Origin: Vicinamibacteria bacterium
GTDB taxonomy: Bacteria > Acidobacteriota > Vicinamibacteria > Fen-336
NCBI GenBank assembly: GCA_023701125.1
Contig: JAMPXO010000003.1
Location: 32,391 to 96,390 of the forward strand
Length of the DNA: 64,000 nt
Direction of reading: 5' to 3'
Part shown: positions 10,480 to 47,805 of the stretch, piece after piece
Layout of the letters: every line of letters begins with the position of its first letter
How positions within the stretch are numbered: the first letter of the stretch is position 1
Position numbers and translations under genes: made by a program
Notes under the pieces: model-generated
The model's input: only the letters and a program-made list of their open reading frames with translations
Told to the model about the DNA's origin: nothing
Database searches by the model: none

Positions 10480-11217
10480 CTACGAAAGCTCCCCCTTGTC
10501 GAGGTGGAAGGTGACCTGGGCGCGGGCGGCGGCCCGTGGGTCGTGGGTCACCATCAGCACCGTCTTGCCGAAATCGCCCACCAGGTGGTGGAGCATGTCG
10601 AGGATCTCGTCCGCGCTGTGGCGGTCGAGGTCACCCGTCGGCTCGTCGCACAGCAGGAAGGTCGGGTCGCCGACGATCGCACGCGCGATGGCGACCCGCT
10701 GCTGCTGGCCGCCGGAGAGCTCGCGTGGCTTGTGGTCCATGCGGTCGTCGAGACCGACGACCCGCAGCGCGGTCGCCACCCGCTCGCGCCGCTCGGCCTT
10801 CGACAGCGGCAGCAGCAGCAGCGGCAGCTCGACGTTGCGGAAGGCCGACAGCACCGGGATCAGGTTGTACATCTGGAACACGAAGCCGACGTGGCGCGCC
10901 CGCCACGTCGTCAGCTTCGACCGCGAGAGCGACGTGATCGGGTCGCCGGCCACGCGGATGATCCCGGCCGACGGCACGTCGAGCCCGCCGATCAGGTTCA
11001 GCAGCGTGCTCTTGCCGGAGCCGGAGGGCCCCATCAGGGCGACGAACTCGCCGCGGTCGACGTCGAGGTTGACGTCCGTGAGGACGTGCAGGTCTTCGCT
11101 GCCGCGCCTGTAGTTCTTGGCGACGCCACGCAGACAGATCAGCGCTTCCGAGGGGGCCGTCGCTCCTACCCGGGCCATGATGGCGCTCATGCTACCGCCG
11201 CCCGAAAGAGCTTGCAT
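10480..11217 (-). CDS. ABC transporter ATP-binding protein (MacB/LolD-like)
   Basis: Walker A GPSGSGKST, signature LSGGQQQRVAIARA, Walker B LLCDEPTG. The start is ambiguous: ATG at 11217, 11190 or 11178. Confidence 0.9.
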   Translation of the reverse strand: MQALSGGGSMSAIMARVGATAPSEALICLRGVAKNYRRGSEDLHVLTDVNLDVDRGEFVALMGPSGSGKSTLLNLIGGLDVPSAGIIRVAGDPITSLSRSKLTTWRARHVGFVFQMYNLIPVLSAFRNVELPLLLLPLSKAERRERVATALRVVGLDDRMDHKPRELSGGQQQRVAIARAIVGDPTFLLCDEPTGDLDRHSADEILDMLHHLVGDFGKTVLMVTHDPRAAARAQVTFHLDKGELS

Positions 11218-11276
11218 TCCAGCCGCCGCGGGCCCATCTTGAAGGTGTAGGACACGAGGGTAGATGCTCGGAGGTC

Positions 11277-11396
11277 AAGTGACCATGGAGGGTCCCCCCG
11301 ACCACGATGGGCCCCGCGGAGGACGGCGGGGCCGGTAAAGAGGCGTAGCAGACCGGGTTCGTTGGGTTTCGTCCTCACCCGGTGTTTCGGTCACTT
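11277..11396 (+). promoter_or_regulatory. candidate structured RNA element (three-way junction with loop-loop complementarity); strand unresolved
   Basis: Closing helix aagtgacc (11277-84) / ggtcactt (11389-96). Hairpin ggccccgc/gcggggcc (11310-17/11326-33). Hairpin accgggt/acccggt (11352-58/11377-83). Loop gaggacg (11319-25) is complementary to loop cgtcctc (11370-76). Confidence 0.3.
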
Positions 11397-11441
11397 CAAA
11401 ACCCCCACCACCCGGGTGGGGCGCGAGAAGGAAGCCTCGCT

Positions 11442-11480
11442 GGCCCGGCAGCTGACGTCGCTGCCGGGCCTCTTTCGTCT
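11442..11480 (+). terminator. intrinsic-terminator-like hairpin upstream of btpA
   Basis: 11-bp stem ggcccggcagc / gctgccgggcc with a 7-nt loop, followed by tctttcgtctc. Confidence 0.45.
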
Positions 11481-11507
11481 CGGGCGCTGTGCTAACTTCC
11501 GCCGCGG

Positions 11508-12317
11508 ATGGACCAGCGCGGCGTCGTTCCAGCGCTCTTCGGCGTGCCTCGCGCCCTGATCGGCATGATCCACGCGGGCGCTCTGCCCGGCTCTCCCCTC
11601 TCCGCCGATCCCGTCGACGCCCTCTGCGCCCACGCCGTGGCCGAGGCGCGGGTGCTGGCCGCGGCCGGCTTCCACGGCCTGCTGCTCGAAAACATGCACG
11701 ACCGACCCTACGTGCGTGGCCAGGCCGCGGCCGAGACGGTCGCCGCGATGGCCGTGATCGCGCGCGAGGTCCGGCGCGAGGTGGCGCTGCCGCTGGGCCT
11801 GCAGGTGCTGGCCGGCGCCAACCGTGAGGCGATCGCGATCGCCCACGCGAGCGGGGCCTGTTTCGTGCGCGTCGAGGGCTTCGTCTTCGCCCACGTCGGC
11901 GACGAGGGCGTGCACGAGTCGGATGCGGCCGCCCTGTTGCGCCACAGGCGGGCGATCGGCGCCGGCGAGGTCCGCGTCTTCGCGGACATCAAGAAGAAGC
12001 ACTCCGCACACGCCATCACCGCGGACGTGTCGCTGGTCGAGACCGCCCGCGCCGCGGAGTTCTTCCTCGCCGACGGCGTGATCGTGACCGGCAGCGCCAC
12101 CGGCGACCCGGCCGACGCCCGCGCGGTGGCCGAGGTCGCCGCCGCCACCGGCCTGCCCACGCTGGTCGGCTCCGGCGTGGACCCTCACAACGTCGCCAGT
12201 TACCGGGCGGCGGACGCGCTGATCGTCGGCTCCTCCCTGAAGAAGGGCGGCCACTGGACCGGGTCGCTGGACGAGGCGCGCTGTGTCGCCGTCTCCCGCG
12301 CCTTCCGGGCCAGCTAG
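11508..12317 (+). CDS. BtpA/SgcQ-family TIM-barrel protein
   Basis: LIGMIHAGALPGSP and GFHGLLLENMHD motifs characteristic of the BtpA family. 269 aa. Confidence 0.75.
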   Translation: MDQRGVVPALFGVPRALIGMIHAGALPGSPLSADPVDALCAHAVAEARVLAAAGFHGLLLENMHDRPYVRGQAAAETVAAMAVIAREVRREVALPLGLQVLAGANREAIAIAHASGACFVRVEGFVFAHVGDEGVHESDAAALLRHRRAIGAGEVRVFADIKKKHSAHAITADVSLVETARAAEFFLADGVIVTGSATGDPADARAVAEVAAATGLPTLVGSGVDPHNVASYRAADALIVGSSLKKGGHWTGSLDEARCVAVSRAFRAS

Positions 12318-12326
12318 GAACTCCCC

Positions 12327-13253
12327 GTGACCGCTCCGGACCTCGTCCTGCTCGGCAACCTGCTGGTCGACGACGTCGTGCTGCCGGACGGTCGCACGCG
12401 GATGGCCGAAGCCGGCGGCTCCGTCCTCTACGGTGCGCTCGCCGCTCGCCTGTGGCAGACCCCGGTCGGCCTCGCGACCGTGCGCGGCAGCGACTACCCG
12501 CAGCCCGTGCTGGACGCGCTGCGCTCGCGCGGCGTGGATTTCGAAGGCGTGCGCGAGCTCGGCCGCGAGGGCCTCCGCACCTGGCTGCTCTACGAGGGCA
12601 AGCGCCGCCAGGTGCTGCACCGCCTCGACCGCCCCACCCACGCCGAGGTCTCGCCCACCCCGGGCTCGCTGCCCGAGCGCTACCAACACTCGCGCGCCTT
12701 CCACCTCGGGCCGATGCCGTTCGAGGTCCAGCGCGAGCTGGTGCTCGAGCTGTCCACGCTGCCGGGGGCGATGCTCTCGCTCGACCCGTTCCGGCCGCTG
12801 CGGCCGGATACGCTCGACGCCTGGCAGCCGATCTTCGCCCGCATCGACATGCTGTTCCTCAGCGAGGACGAGATGCAGTTGCCGGGGGCGGTCCAGCGGC
12901 CCGAGGACGTGCTGCGCTCGCTGCGCGGCGGTCGCCTGCGCCACGTGTTCTACAAGCGTGGCGCGCAGGGCGGCCTGGCCTACGACGTGGCGCGCGACCG
13001 GATCGACGCGTGGGGGGGCCGCGCGCCGGAGTACGCGGACGCCACCGGTGCCGGCGACGCCTTCGCCTCGGGTGTGATCAGCGGCCTGCTCCGCGGCGAA
13101 CCGACCGCGCGGGCCGTGGCCCGCGGCATCGTGGGCGCGAGCTTCGCGATCTCGAGCTGGGGCATCGACGGCCTGCTGGAGACTGGCGCAGAGGAGGCCG
13201 AAGGCCGGCTCGCGAACTGGTTCGCGCAGGGCGGAGCGTGGGCGGAGGCGTGA
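12327..13253 (+). CDS. PfkB-family carbohydrate/nucleoside kinase (pseudouridine-kinase-like by context)
   Basis: PfkB signature DATGAGDAFASG. Its stop overlaps the psuG start (GTGA). Confidence 0.8.
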   Translation: MTAPDLVLLGNLLVDDVVLPDGRTRMAEAGGSVLYGALAARLWQTPVGLATVRGSDYPQPVLDALRSRGVDFEGVRELGREGLRTWLLYEGKRRQVLHRLDRPTHAEVSPTPGSLPERYQHSRAFHLGPMPFEVQRELVLELSTLPGAMLSLDPFRPLRPDTLDAWQPIFARIDMLFLSEDEMQLPGAVQRPEDVLRSLRGGRLRHVFYKRGAQGGLAYDVARDRIDAWGGRAPEYADATGAGDAFASGVISGLLRGEPTARAVARGIVGASFAISSWGIDGLLETGAEEAEGRLANWFAQGGAWAEA

Positions 13254-14167
13254 TTCGCGGCCGCCTCCGGATCGCGCCCGCGATCGCGGCGGCCCTGCGC
13301 GCCGACCGTCCCGTGGTCGCGCTGGAGACCACCCTCGTCACCCACGGGCTGCCCGCTCCGGAGGGGGTCGCCACGGCCCGGCAGATGGAGGCCGAGGTCC
13401 GCGACGCGGGCGCCGTGCCCGCGACCATCGGCGTCCTGGACGGCGCGATCGTGGTCGGCCTCGAGGACGTGCAGCTCGATGCGCTCTCCGCCCCGGGGGC
13501 CGTCAAGCTCAACCTCTCGAACCTGGCGGCGGCCCTCGCCCGCGGTCAGCGCGGGTCCACGACCGTGGCGGCCACGGCGTGGTGCGCGTCGCTCGCCGGC
13601 ATCCGGGTCTTCGCGACCGGCGGCATCGGCGGCGTTCATCGTGGATTCGCCGATCGCGGAGACGTCTCTGCGGACCTCGAGGCGCTGGCCCGCTTCGCCG
13701 TGGTCGTGGTCTCGGCCGGGGCCAAGGCCGTGCTCGACCTCCCCCGCACCCGCGAGCTGCTGGAGACGCTCGGCGTGCCCGTCTACGGCTTCGGCACCGA
13801 CACCTGGCCCGCGTTCTACCGCCGTGGCAGCGCGCTGGCCGTCGACGCCCGCTTCGACGACCCCACGGCCCTCGCGGCCGCGGCCGCCGCCCACTTCGAA
13901 CTCGGCGGCGGTGGCGTGCTGGTCGGCAACCCGATCCCGATGGAGCACGAGCTCCCCGCCGAGGTCGAGCGCGAGGCGATCGCCGCAGCGCTGGCCGACG
14001 CGGAAGCCTCGGCCGTGGCCGGGCGCGACCTCACCCCGTTCCTGCTCGATCGCTTGCGCGTGGCGACCGCGGGGCGCAGCGTCGTCAGCAACGTGGCGCT
14101 GCTGCGGAACAACGCGCGCCTCGCCGGGCGAATCGCTGCCGCGCTACCTCCGCGACCGCGCGAATAA
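13250..14167 (+). CDS. psuG: pseudouridine-5'-phosphate glycosidase (IndA family)
   Basis: GTG 13250 is in frame in ORF 12452..14167. Motifs VVALETTLVTHGLP, FATGGIGGVHRG and VVSAGAKAVLDLPRTRELLETLGVPV. Confidence 0.85.
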   Translation: MIRGRLRIAPAIAAALRADRPVVALETTLVTHGLPAPEGVATARQMEAEVRDAGAVPATIGVLDGAIVVGLEDVQLDALSAPGAVKLNLSNLAAALARGQRGSTTVAATAWCASLAGIRVFATGGIGGVHRGFADRGDVSADLEALARFAVVVVSAGAKAVLDLPRTRELLETLGVPVYGFGTDTWPAFYRRGSALAVDARFDDPTALAAAAAAHFELGGGGVLVGNPIPMEHELPAEVEREAIAAALADAEASAVAGRDLTPFLLDRLRVATAGRSVVSNVALLRNNARLAGRIAAALPPRPRE

Positions 14168-21591: not shown

Positions 21592-22905
21592 CTAGAACAG
21601 CACCGTGAAGCGGGTCGGCCCTCCGGGCGCGGCCTCCAGCGAGAACGCGCAGCGGTGCTGGGCCAGGATTTCCTGGACGAGCGTGAGCCCGATGCCCTGG
21701 CCGCCCTCCTTCGTGCTGAAGAAGGGGGTGAACAGGTTCGCGCGGACCTCTTCGCTCAACCCGGGTCCCGTGTCGCGGACCTCGATCAGGCCGCGACCCT
21801 CGCGCCGCCCGGTCACCAGCGTGACGGTGCCGCCGCGGCCCGCCGCTTCGATGGCGTTCTTGATCACGTTGGCGAGTGCCTGCTCCAGCAGCGCCCGGTC
21901 CGCGTCCACGATGACCGGCGCCGGCGCCAGCTCCCAGGCGATGGCGACGCCTCGGGCCCGGGCGTGGGCCGCCAGCAGGCGGGCGAGATCGCCCAGCAAC
22001 TCCCCCACGTCCAGGCGCTCCCGGCGCGGAGGTGGCAACCGGAACAGCGCGGCGAAGCGGCCCAGGAAGTCGGCCAGCGCGCGGGTGCGTTCGATCACGA
22101 CGCCCAGCGCGTTTTCGTAGTCGCCACGGTCCTCGTCGCGCAACTGCGGCGCGTAGGCGAGGCAGGACTGCAGCAGCGAGCCCGAGGCGGCGACGGTGGT
22201 GTTGACCTCGTGCGACATCGTGCGGATCAGCTTCTCGTAGGCCGCGCGCTCGGAGCGCCGCAGTTCTTCGGTCAGCTCGTCGAGCACGAAGAAGCGCCTT
22301 CGGAATCCGCGATCGAGGAAGTGCCCACATTGCGCGCGGACGCGCCGCCCCGCGCTGAGGGTCGCGACCCGGGCCTCGCCATCCGCGAGGCCCGCCACCG
22401 CCTCGCCGAGCGGGCCCGGTAGCGACAGGAGGGCGACCCCGCGCAGCGCCGCAGGCTCGCTGTCGAGCAGGCGGGCGGCCGCCGGGTTGGCGACGTCGAC
22501 CCGCTCGTCGAAGTCCAGGACCAGGACGCCCGTGGCCGAGACCTCCAGGATGCGGCTCAGGAAGTGGTGCCGCTCCTCCGCGTGGACCCGTTCCGAGCGC
22601 AACTGGTCGGCCATCCGGTTGTAGACGTGGACCAGTTCGTCGACCTGCGGCTGGCCCGTGGCCACGAAGCGGGTCGTGAAGTCGCCCTCCTCCAGCAGCC
22701 GCGCGCTGTCGCGCGCCAGCTCCAGCGGCTCGAACAGCGCGGCCGTCAGACGGAAGCCGAGCAGCAGGCTGGCCACGAACAGCGTCTCGACCACGATCAG
22801 CGCCGAGCGGTTCTCGACGAGCAGCACGAAGGCCAGGGCGGCGAACACGCCGTGGATGGCGGCCAGGTACACGAGCACCCGCCCTCGTGGGCTCAGCAGC
22901 TTCAC
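21592..22905 (-). CDS. sensor histidine kinase (2 TM, HAMP, PAS, HisKA, HATPase)
   Basis: Two N-terminal TM segments. H-box IRTMSHEVNT, N-box NVIKNAIEA, G-boxes DTGPGL and GQGIGLTLV. Confidence 0.85.
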   Translation of the reverse strand: MKLLSPRGRVLVYLAAIHGVFAALAFVLLVENRSALIVVETLFVASLLLGFRLTAALFEPLELARDSARLLEEGDFTTRFVATGQPQVDELVHVYNRMADQLRSERVHAEERHHFLSRILEVSATGVLVLDFDERVDVANPAAARLLDSEPAALRGVALLSLPGPLGEAVAGLADGEARVATLSAGRRVRAQCGHFLDRGFRRRFFVLDELTEELRRSERAAYEKLIRTMSHEVNTTVAASGSLLQSCLAYAPQLRDEDRGDYENALGVVIERTRALADFLGRFAALFRLPPPRRERLDVGELLGDLARLLAAHARARGVAIAWELAPAPVIVDADRALLEQALANVIKNAIEAAGRGGTVTLVTGRREGRGLIEVRDTGPGLSEEVRANLFTPFFSTKEGGQGIGLTLVQEILAQHRCAFSLEAAPGGPTRFTVLF

Positions 22906-24128
22906 GTCGCCAGTCCTCCCGCGGTGTCACAATCCGGCATGCGTCCTGACGGGTCCTGGCACCCGGTCCTGCTGTGGATCACCGCCATTCTCCTGGCCCT
23001 CGGGTTCCACGTTCTGGCCCCGGTACTCGAAGTGCCTGACAGCGCGTCGTACCTCGCGCCGGCCCGTTCATGGGCGCGTGGCGACGGGCTGCTGGAGGCG
23101 GACGGATCGCCGATGTCCTACCGGATGCCGGCCTTCCCGCTGGTCGTCGGCATCGGGATCCGGCTCTCCGGCGATCCCGGGAACCTGGCCTCCGTCAGCC
23201 TGACGAACTTCGTCTGCCTGCTGCTCACCGCGCTGCTGACCCGACGCGCGATCCGGAGTCTCGGGGCGCCCGACCTCGCCGATCTCGGCGGGGCCGTGTG
23301 CCTCCTGTACCCGCCGCTGCTGACCTCCACGGCCCTCGTGCTGCAGGAGACCCTGCTCACGTTGTTCGTGACGCTGCTCTTCTCCTGCCTGGTGACGGCG
23401 ACGAAGGAGGACAGCTGGGGGCCAGCGGGCCTCGCCGGAGCCGCGCTCGGCCTCACGCTGCTGACCAAGCCCGTGATCGCTCCGACGGCGCCGCTGCTGC
23501 TGCTGCTGCTGGCTGCGACGCAGCGCAATGTTCGCAAGCGGGTCGCCGCGTTCTGCCTGCTGGCCGCCCTCGTGGTCGCGCCCTGGGCCATCCGCAACGC
23601 GGTGGTGCTGGGCCGCATCGAGCTGGCGCCGGGCAACACCGGGCACACGCTCCTGGGAGGCACCGTCTCCAACCAGATCGACGACTGGTACGGCTTCGAC
23701 GAGTACGAGAGCGCCGCTCGCGACTGGGCCGCGAGTGCTGCGGGCGCCGACACCCTCGACCGTCACCTGACCCGGGTCGCGCTCCACCGGATCGCGCAGG
23801 ACCCGGCCCGCTGGGCCCGGCTCTGCCTCGAGCGCGTGGGCCGCTTCATGCTTCCCTCGCGGGTCTTCTTCGTGCAGGCGGGGCTCTCGCGGACCGGCAG
23901 CTTCGGCCCCCTGTACGTGGTCGCCAGCCTGGTCAGCGTGGCGCTCTTCGCGCTCACGCTGTTCGTCGGCGGGCTGGCCTGGCGAAGGCGCGACCCCGCG
24001 CTGGCCGTCGGTCCGGTGCTCGTGTTGGGCCACGTGCTGGTCTACGCCGCCACCTACGTGAGCCCCCGCTACGCCCTGCCGATCACCCCGGCGCTGATCG
24101 CCTGCGCCGCCTGGGCCGCGCAAGTCGC

Positions 24129-25502
<1,374 letters not shown>

Positions 25503-25529
25503 GCGCGCTCCGGGGGCCAGGCCTGCGGG

Positions 25530-27982: not shown

Positions 27983-28644
<662 letters not shown>

Positions 28645-47002: not shown

Positions 47003-47805
47003 AGGATGCCGTCGATAGCGTGATCGCCGAGCGCGAACGGCTCGACCGGGGCTTCCCGGCCGGGCTCGTGATGTCGCTGGCCGGTCACCTGCTGATCGCG
47101 GGGGCCGCGTTCGCGCTGCCGATCCTGATGCCGGCCAAGCCGAAGCTGCAGGTCTCGATCGGCATCGCCATCCCGATCCCGCGTGGGGGCGGCGGCAGCC
47201 CGACGGCCGGCTCGCCCGACGGCGGCGCCGCACAGCAGCCCCCGGTCACCCAGGCCCCGGAGCCGGAACCGCCCAAGCCCGAGCCTGTCAAGGTCGTGAA
47301 GCCCCCGAAGGAAGCCGAGCGCAAGGGCCTGCCCGACCCGAAGGCGGACAAGAAGAAGGCGAAGGCGAAGAAGCCCGAGCCCGCGCGGCCGTCCAGCACC
47401 ACGTCCGCGAAGTCCACCGCGAGCAAGAAACCGGCCGGCACCGGGGCGCAGAGCACGACCGCCTCCAGCGCGACCCCGGGGGTGGGACTCGGTCCGGTCG
47501 GACCCGGGCTGCCTGGCGGCACGACCTCGACCGGCGACTGGTACCTTGCGGCCGTCCAGCAGAAGATCTGGATGATCTGGAATCAGCAGCTCCGGACCGG
47601 CACGTATCCGCCGGTGACTGTTCGCTTCACCATCCTCGGCGACGGCCAGGTCACCGACGTCGCCATCGTCCAGTCGAGCGGGCAATACCTGCTCGACCAG
47701 GCGGCCCAGCGGGCCGTGCTCACCGCCGGGCCATTCTCGCCGCTGCCCAGGAGCTATGACACCAAGGCCTTCACACTCCAGGCCGTCTTCCAGCCGGTCG
47801 GTTAG
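46999..47805 (+). CDS. tolA: TolA-position energy transducer with TonB-type C-terminal domain
   Basis: The TTG start overlaps the tolR stop (TTGA). N-terminal TM, a Pro/Lys/Ala-rich linker, and a TonB_C-like C-terminus (VTVRFTILGDGQVTDVAIVQSSG). Confidence 0.7.
   Translation: MKDAVDSVIAERERLDRGFPAGLVMSLAGHLLIAGAAFALPILMPAKPKLQVSIGIAIPIPRGGGGSPTAGSPDGGAAQQPPVTQAPEPEPPKPEPVKVVKPPKEAERKGLPDPKADKKKAKAKKPEPARPSSTTSAKSTASKKPAGTGAQSTTASSATPGVGLGPVGPGLPGGTTSTGDWYLAAVQQKIWMIWNQQLRTGTYPPVTVRFTILGDGQVTDVAIVQSSGQYLLDQAAQRAVLTAGPFSPLPRSYDTKAFTLQAVFQPVG

Follow-up and report, generated by a model that had tools for sequence, protein, structure and literature searches.

Results

The gap between the ABC and btpA operons

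The window, which here means the whole 64-kb stretch of DNA that was analysed, has a G+C content of 71%, is identical to a Logan contig and carries, between two divergent operons, a long non-coding gap which an earlier note on this DNA had described as a candidate riboswitch leader or small RNA (sRNA). To the left of the gap, an ABC ATPase gene followed by MacB/FtsX permease genes lies on the minus strand, and to the right, btpA, a PfkB kinase gene (pfkB) and the gene of an Indigoidine_A/PsuG protein (psuG) lie on the plus strand, with an overlap of 4 nt between the latter two. The structured RNA which the gap appears to encode is the subject of this analysis, and the genes that bound it are placed as follows.

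11176-11178, minus strand: true start codon (ATG, MARVG...) of the ABC ATPase gene; its N-terminus MARVG[A/S]TAPSEALICLRGVAK is kept in the related metagenome contig L087
11508-12317, plus strand: btpA, of the BtpA/SgcQ TIM-barrel family
12327-13253, plus strand: PfkB kinase gene
13250-14167, plus strand: Indigoidine_A/PsuG protein gene

The gap between the ABC gene and btpA is 329 nt long (11179-11507). Its left end falls at 11179 and not at 11218, as the conserved start of the ABC gene is the ATG at 11178, so that the long non-coding gap of the earlier note stands while the length of 290 bp given for it does not. The start at 11178 is supported by 93.5% identity over 232 aa, and the upstream ATG at 11217, which is the start of the ABC gene in the list of open reading frames (ORFs), is out of frame in L087 and followed there by a stop. 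The in-frame extension of the ABC ORF from 11178 to 11217 in the window is coincidental.

The relatives available for comparison come from several searches. The BtpA loci of GTDB species representatives are all distant (56-67% identity), and neither blastn nor nhmmer found anything like the gap at them; the best GTDB matches of BtpA (65-67%) are scattered over several phyla. Three close BtpA relatives, L082, L083 and L084, were obtained from a search of a large protein collection, and a DNA pattern scan of metagenome contigs returned nine loci, two of which, L086 and L087, are real and the other seven due to chance. Both real loci are identical to L082 across the RNA region. A search with the ABC ATPase added L097 and L098, and a search with the N-terminal 90 aa of BtpA for truncated genes on short contigs gave distant short proteins only. 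The L097 contig, in reverse complement, and L084 come from the same JGI sample and overlap by 24 nt, and were joined into a composite gap, J389. The related lineages are therefore three in number, L082/L086/L087, J389 (L097 and L084) and L083; the gap is complete in the window, L082 and J389 and partial in L083. Identity of BtpA to that of the window is 93% in L083, 86% in L082/L086/L087 and 87% in J389, and the ABC ATPase of J389 is 94% identical. The outgroup L098 shares 80% identity with the window in the ABC ATPase, 61% in the permease and 85% in the N-terminus of BtpA.

A conserved RNA with six hairpins

The window and L082 agree in 77.5% of the aligned columns of the gap. For the four-fold degenerate sites of btpA, pfkB and psuG the identity of this pair is 56%, with approximately 46% expected from a composition of C and G only, so that the synonymous sites of the flanking genes are close to saturation. 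As the identity of the gap exceeds that of the four-fold sites, the gap is under selection. The parts of the predicted RNA are listed below.

11247-11480, plus strand: predicted sRNA transcript of ~235 nt, with hairpins P1-P6 and a U-rich tail, based on conservation, structure, strand and terminator; both ends predicted
11267-11290, plus strand: hairpin P1, CUCGGAGGUC[AAGU]GACCAUGGAG, 8 pairs, containing GGAGG and AUG
11293-11304, plus strand: unpaired C-rich UCCCCCCGACCA, without variation among the three full-length lineages; candidate binding site or seed
11310-11333, plus strand: hairpin P2, arms GGCCCCGC and GCGGGGCC around the invariant, Shine-Dalgarno (SD)-like loop GGAGGACG
11352-11383, plus strand: hairpin P3, ACCGGGU[...CGUCCUC]ACCCGGU, the loop ending in an invariant heptamer
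11403-11421, plus strand: hairpin P4, CCCCACC[ACCCG]GGUGGGG, with A-U to G-C in L082, L084 and J389 and a variable loop
11423-11440, plus strand: hairpin P5, arms GCGAG and CUCGC, stem invariant, around the GGA-containing loop AAGGAAGC
11442-11480, plus strand: intrinsic terminator P6, G+C stem of 10-11 bp, variable loop, tail UCUUUCGUCU

An inverted-repeat search of the window recovered, at the stated coordinates, all helices which the earlier note had listed, together with the 7-nt complement between two of the loops. Their conservation was assessed in a structure alignment anchored on the hairpins, in which gaps were written as N. Variable columns amount to 8 of 94 in the stems, 24 of 54 in the hairpin loops and 47 of 103 (46%) in the linkers, that is, 8.5% of stem columns compared with 45% of unpaired ones (Fisher p = 2e-10). 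Every one of the 200 pair cells of P1-P6 forms a standard pair, with no pair broken. Both sides have changed in three pairs, namely A-U to G-C in P3 of J389, U-A to C-G in P3 of L082 and J389, and A-U to G-C in P4, whereas three further pairs have changed on one side to G.U: a U-A pair of P1 has become U.G in L082 and J389, and C has been replaced by U in P2 twice independently, in L082 and in L083. When the 3′ partners are shifted by 1-3 columns as a control, no more than 52% of the cells can pair and double changes disappear.

The stems are fixed while the loops vary both in sequence and in length. The loop of P1 reads AAGT, CATT or CACT, that of P3 has lost 11 nt in L082 and J389 with the adjacent CGUCCUC left intact, that of P5 changes in length and sequence (AAGGAAGC as opposed to AUGGAAC) around a GGAA which never varies, and that of P6 is 3 nt longer in L082 and J389. 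Taken together, the comparison of these related sequences shows that the gap holds a conserved and selected structured RNA with six hairpins. Thermodynamic stability is only modestly unusual and does not choose between the strands, with folding z-scores of −2.5 (plus) and −2.0 (minus) for 11218-11507 and of −2.7 (plus) and −3.4 (minus) for 11247-11482.

The strand, which the earlier note had left open on the grounds that all helices could also form on the minus strand, is the plus strand. The three changes to G.U in P1 and P2 would be A.C mismatches in an RNA of opposite sense, and the U-run that follows P6 is kept on the plus strand, while the TTTT seen in the window after the ccccacc/ggtgggg hairpin, P4, on the minus strand is not conserved among the lineages (TTTTGAAG, TTCTCATG, TTCCTACG). 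A minus-strand RNA, either the 5′ leader of the ABC/MacB operon or an sRNA of that strand, would agree with the formal possibility of the same helices there and with the slightly better z-score. It would, on the other hand, leave no U-run after P6, and the −10 box of the ABC operon, 10 nt from the ATG, would come to lie downstream of the element in that orientation; together with the three mismatches, this makes an RNA of the minus strand scarcely credible.

The 3′ end of the predicted RNA has the appearance of a genuine intrinsic terminator. A terminator scan reports 11 pairs in P6, 10 of them G-C, followed by a T-rich tail, and the hairpin at 11442-11470 with the subsequent TCTTTCGTCT is the sole terminator-like site in 11000-11700, where 0.3 would be expected from shuffled sequences. 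Four sequences share an unchanged stem and differ in the sequence and length of the loop, and the U-run reads UCUUU, UUUUU or UUUUC. The earlier plus-strand reading of this 11-bp hairpin as terminator-like is borne out by the conservation of both stem and U-run.

Complementary loops and the proposed junction

The GAGGACG in the loop of P2 (11319-11325) is complementary over 7 nt to the CGUCCUC in the loop of P3 (11370-11376), and both are invariant. For loops of this size and composition such a complement has a chance probability of approximately 0.6-1%. The complement itself, for which a kissing or alternative-helix potential had been proposed, is present at the stated coordinates, and the pairing of the two loops is retained as a candidate contact. 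In the clade of L082 and J389 (L082:636-700) the GAGGACG is repeated in the linker between P2 and P3 as AGAGGACGGAG, in a form that is degenerate in the window (AGAGGCGTAG), and CGUCCUC consequently has two possible partners in these sequences. From this repeat, the segment GAGGACGG...CCGG would seem to have been duplicated within the RNA.

A three-way junction closed by the helix aagtgacc/ggtcactt had also been envisaged. The 8 bp of this helix, AAGTGACC and GGTCACTT (11277-84 / 11389-96), are present in the window as a perfect inverted repeat, approximately 0.6 of which are expected by chance per 290 nt by our own arithmetic. In the alignment only 58% of its cells are paired, five of the eight pairs being broken in L082 as well as in J389, and the GACC at 11281-84, the 3′ half of its 5′ arm, pairs locally with GGTC within P1. 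As the closing helix is not conserved, the junction is unsupported; conservation in the relatives extends to the five previously noted hairpins, P2-P6, and to P1, which is newly recognised here.

Candidate promoters of the RNA and of the flanking operons

Promoter-like elements are found both upstream of the RNA and directly in front of the two neighbouring operons.

11212-11217, plus strand: TTGCAT as candidate −35 of the sRNA promoter; three lineages share an unchanged GCTTGCATTC
11235-11240, plus strand: candidate −10 CATCTT (GATCTT in L082) of the sRNA promoter; ATCTTGAAG is invariant; predicted start at ~11247
11189-11194, minus strand: TAGCAT, the −10 box of the ABC operon, 10 nt from an ATG that lacks an SD; lies outside the RNA
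11490-11498, plus strand: TGCTAACTT, the extended −10 of the btpA operon, 9 nt from the ATG at 11508, which lacks an SD; lies outside the RNA

Upstream of the RNA, the spacing in TTGCAT-N17-(C/G)ATCTT is 17 in all lineages, and of the 15 nt between the invariant blocks, 9 are different in L082 from those in the window. Invariant blocks separated by a variable spacer of fixed length are the footprint that would be expected of a promoter, and the two blocks are taken here as the putative promoter of the sRNA. A sigma-54 promoter at TTGCAT was also considered, and was rejected by eye for want of the GG-N10-GC spacing in the window and in L082. The host itself has sigma-54, since a sigma-54-dependent response regulator (Sigma54_activat, Response_reg and HTH_8) is encoded with a histidine kinase at 21592-25529, and Actinobacteria are thereby excluded in spite of the high G+C content and the leaderless genes.

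The boxes of the flanking operons are of a different kind and well conserved. That of the ABC operon is TAGCAT in the window and in L098 and TAGGAT in L082 and J389, and lies 8-10 nt before the ATG; that of btpA, TGnTAACnT, in which n varies (C, A, T, C), precedes the ATG by 9-10 nt and is present in L098 as well. The btpA and ABC genes are devoid of an SD, whereas the internal psuG and permease genes have GGAGG-like SDs. Over the whole window, a TANNNT ending 6-11 nt before the start of ORFs supported by the G+C content of third codon positions occurs 13 times, as against approximately 0.45 per other offset, which amounts to an approximately 5-fold enrichment; the starts with such a box are 3262(+), 5850(−), 11178(−), 11508(+), 15615(−), 19638(+), 35451(−) and 49799(+). 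The TANNNT and TGNTANNNT motifs are the published signature of leaderless genes and of extended −10 promoters (PMC3898074, PMC3160421). It therefore seems that the organism makes wide use of leaderless or near-leaderless mRNAs.

As their −10 boxes adjoin the start codons and persist where the RNA is missing, both flanking operons appear to have promoters of their own at the start codons and to be transcribed independently of the RNA. The locus where it is missing is L098 (L098:1-190; JGI 3300037479, contig Ga0394879_0020049), which has the same divergent ABC/btpA pair with a gap of 54 nt. No trace of the RNA is found in these 54 nt, and both boxes are kept (TAGCAT and TGTGCTAACGT). We regard this empty site as the most telling result of the analysis: because L098 retains the genes and both boxes in the absence of the RNA, a module of approximately 280 nt (~11201-11480) is separable from both promoters.

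Also in L098, the extended −10 of btpA, TGTGCTAACGT, overlaps an opposite-strand TTAGCA at the −35 position of the ABC promoter. The module in the window is bracketed by a short repeat.

11203-11210 and 11470-11477: 8-nt inverted repeat with arms CGAAAGAG (left) and CTCTTTCG (right); by eye, L082 and J389 keep it only in part

This repeat sits almost exactly where the window departs from the empty site, and could be a relic of an insertion or a coincidence. An origin of the RNA from a repeat or mobile element was rejected, as the 64-kb window has no second copy of it and the bracketing repeat is conserved only in part. At 28108-28574 (in the area of 26.7-30 kb) the window has another ABC ATPase paralogue of the MacB type, with 72% nucleotide identity to 10606-11072, which adjoins HlyD-family and FtsX/MacB genes; no copy of the RNA is found upstream of it.

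Distribution of the RNA

No Rfam family matches any part of the window at gathering thresholds. For the region itself at E ≤ 10 only sub-threshold matches are returned, to mir-1538 (16.7 bits, threshold 78), Pxr (14.4 bits, threshold 80) and ncS037 (13.7 bits, threshold 112), none of them credible, in accordance with the earlier note, which could match the region to none of the riboswitch consensus structures it considered.

The RNA is equally absent from other loci with related genes. Searches of 80 GTDB-species btpA loci with blastn, with nhmmer (both as a single sequence and as a profile) and with a covariance model, R1, that covers P2-P6 gave no match. Among the relatives for which DNA was available, four closer metagenomic relatives of btpA (~70% identity) have other neighbours, upstream gaps of 3-95 nt and no RNA, and the ABC operons at 78-80% identity likewise have other neighbours, short gaps and no match to nhmmer or R1. 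The btpA-pfkB-psuG cluster, in turn, occurs across many phyla, at 34 of the 76 GTDB-species loci. As the cluster is widespread and the RNA is missing from these other loci, the RNA is not a general feature of btpA-pfkB-psuG.

Two further matches were set aside as chance. One is a weak, G+C-rich match to R1 over its full length at 47563-47740 (20.6 bits), located in the C-terminal coding part of a TonB/TolA-like gene; the other is a complement between the P5/P6 region and the first btpA codons (26 nt, 77%), which is not kept in L082 and J389. With regard to the neighbouring cluster, no described link between BtpA and pseudouridine genes was found in the literature, and BtpA may be an unrecognised third enzyme of pseudouridine salvage.

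Discussion

A probable stand-alone sRNA gene

On balance, the gap probably encodes a stand-alone sRNA gene of ~235 nt on the plus strand (~11247-11480), with a promoter of weak consensus and an intrinsic terminator, restricted to a narrow uncultured lineage. In such a model, transcription would start near 11247 from the TTGCAT / CATCTT promoter, the body of the transcript would fold into six independent hairpins, P1-P6, and the G+C hairpin of P6 with its U-run would terminate it. The gene would form a separable module inserted between the back-to-back promoters of the leaderless or near-leaderless ABC/MacB and btpA-pfkB-psuG mRNAs. Its functional sites would presumably be the invariant unpaired UCCCCCCGACCA, the CGUCCUC, which resembles an anti-Shine-Dalgarno sequence, and the SD-like P2 loop GGAGGACG. 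Elements rich in C or containing CCUC (UCCCCCCGACC and CGUCCUC) may pair, in the manner of C-rich sRNA seeds, with G-rich ribosome-binding regions of target mRNAs, and the loops of P2 and P3 may kiss within the molecule and thereby shape the RNA, or the P2 loop may mask the seed. Between the two possibilities raised by the earlier note, the sRNA is thus the better supported and the riboswitch is disfavoured.

Several observations weigh against an independent sRNA gene. The candidate promoter matches the sigma-70 consensus in only 6 of 12 positions, is not called by the promoter scan and differs from the other promoters of the window, which have the TANNNT form. In every carrier the RNA points the same way as btpA, with its end 28 nt short of the btpA ATG. 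Covariation is thin, with a score that is equalled or exceeded in 4 of 500 shuffles, although the pattern is consistent; the carriers comprise only three independent lineages, all of them close relatives, and the complement between the P2 and P3 loops shows no variation in any lineage, so that the kissing contact is a candidate. Furthermore, the transcription of the RNA, its start and its 3′ end, as well as its function, are all predicted from the DNA sequence.

Alternative explanations

The orientation and the constant distance from btpA would also be those of a cis-regulatory leader of btpA-pfkB-psuG, that is, a new riboswitch or an attenuator controlled by a protein or RNA, in which transcription begins at the upstream promoter, P1-P5 act as the sensor and P6 terminates or is bypassed, so that regulated read-through is added to the output of the proximal btpA promoter. 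The architecture of multiple hairpins with invariant loops and a 7-nt loop-loop complement is consistent with such a leader, as is a conceivable antiterminator, in which the 5′ arm of P3 (A/GCCGGGY) pairs with GCCCGGC of the 5′ arm of P6, with 7 perfect pairs in J389 as judged by eye; also by eye, this alternative pairing shows no covariation. The literature, where no riboswitch for psuG or pseudouridine was found, leaves room for a new one. Against a leader stands the extended −10 box between the terminator and the ATG, and an RNA reading through the terminator would present an internal AUG that lacks an SD. In addition, L098 has the same gene pair and boxes without the element, the 80 GTDB-species loci and the four closer relatives lack it although the cluster is widespread, the helix that would close the junction is not conserved, and there is no Rfam match. 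The earlier picture of an aptamer and terminator placed before btpA is weakened by the intervening box, by the RNA-less L098 and by the absence of the element from other btpA-pfkB-psuG operons, and a cis-acting leader is considered unlikely. A more specific form of it, a switch for btpA-psuK-psuG in which kissing of P2 and P3 senses pseudouridine or a related metabolite and sets the P6 terminator against the antiterminator of the P3 and P6 arms, over a constitutive leaderless promoter, is distinctly unlikely.

In another explanation, a translated leader peptide or dual-function RNA, ribosomes stalling at PPD in a small ORF inside the RNA would control folding or termination.

11285-11338, plus strand: small ORF, MEGPPDHDGPRGGRRGR*, with GGAGG 10 nt upstream; judged non-coding

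Besides the GGAGG 10 nt upstream of the ATG at 11285, the proposal is favoured by the first 17 codons, which are largely kept in three lineages as ME[G/V]PPD[H/Q][D/C/F]GPRGGRRGR; Pro-Pro-Asp is a stalling motif that depends on EF-P. By eye on the alignments, however, the stop is not conserved, as a 1-nt deletion in L082 and J389 extends the product from 17 to 33 aa, the sequence downstream tolerates indels of 1 nt and a deletion of 11 nt, and L082 and J389 differ by five non-synonymous and three synonymous changes. Moreover, the window and L082 agree in the third position of each of the first six codons even though synonymous sites elsewhere are saturated, which indicates a constraint on the RNA and not on a peptide, and the SD is buried in P1 together with the AUG, so a translated leader appears improbable. 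Alternatively, the conserved blocks could be DNA-level operators of the divergent promoters, with the hairpins as incidental palindromic binding sites. Divergent promoters commonly share operators, several of the blocks are palindromic, and the 8-nt inverted repeat brackets the module. Operators, on the other hand, would not readily account for compensatory changes that alter both arms yet keep the pairing, for G.U-type changes tolerated in the sense of one strand only, or for stems that are fixed while loop lengths vary; six different hairpins exceed what one operator scheme would call for, and L098 keeps both promoters without the DNA of the module. This explanation is consequently highly improbable, and a free-standing sRNA gene is preferred to all of the above.

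Significance

The RNA appears to be previously undescribed and yet of a familiar kind, a candidate lineage-specific sRNA. If confirmed, it would be a further sRNA family yet to be described, from an uncultured lineage with a high G+C content and sigma-54 for which we know of no regulatory RNAs. It would also provide a natural example of an sRNA gene that is present in one clade and faces a syntenic empty site elsewhere, between leaderless promoters, which could be useful in studying how sRNA genes originate. For annotation, the locus illustrates that a long structured gap with a terminator in front of an operon is insufficient for calling a riboswitch where leaderless promoters abut the start codons. 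Should the less likely pseudouridine-responsive switch nevertheless prove correct, it would represent the first case of a riboswitch in the salvage of a modified nucleoside.

Comparison with known systems

The arrangement of P2 and P3 recalls the purine riboswitch "tuning fork" (RF00167), in which the loops of neighbouring hairpins likewise interact (L2-L3), and the terminator followed by a nucleoside-metabolism operon adds to the likeness. In contrast to the purine riboswitch, however, the closing helix is not conserved here, an 18-nt linker between P2 and P3 takes the place of a tight junction, the loop-loop contact would consist of 7 contiguous Watson-Crick pairs, and the region matches neither this model nor that of any other riboswitch. 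A promoter-like box, moreover, stands between the element and the gene, and the element is absent from other btpA/psuG operons.

Among sRNAs, the Pxr of Myxococcus (RF01812) is comparable in being a multi-hairpin sRNA of a high-G+C diderm, and of the three sub-threshold Rfam matches it is the only one on the plus strand that spans more than one hairpin (P4-P6). The match, at 14.4 bits against a gathering score of 80 and with E = 5.8, is carried almost entirely by the generic terminator hairpin with its G+C stem, and membership in this family was rejected since the score is far below the threshold. The CsrB/RsmZ sponge RNAs are brought to mind by the GGA in the loops of P2 (GGAGGACG) and P5 (A(A/U)GGAA), which is kept in all lineages. 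Sponges carry many more such motifs than the approximately 6 found in the 235 nt here, where approximately 4 would be expected and where 2-3 lie in loops, and a role as a CsrA sponge was rejected because the GGA motifs are not clearly enriched.

The layout is that of an ordinary sRNA with Rho-independent termination, and trans-acting sRNAs of this kind that have a C-rich seed, for example RsaE/RoxS of the Firmicutes, provide a further parallel. At ~235 nt and with six hairpins the RNA described here is larger than RsaE, shows no similarity to any Rfam sRNA, is predicted from sequence and belongs to a sigma-54-containing diderm with a G+C content of 71%. Like RsaE/RoxS, on the other hand, it would be encoded by a free-standing intergenic gene with a terminator hairpin and U-run of its own, and would fold into several stem-loops, with the invariant C-rich UCCCCCCGACCA and the CGUCCUC available to pair with G-rich ribosome-binding sites.

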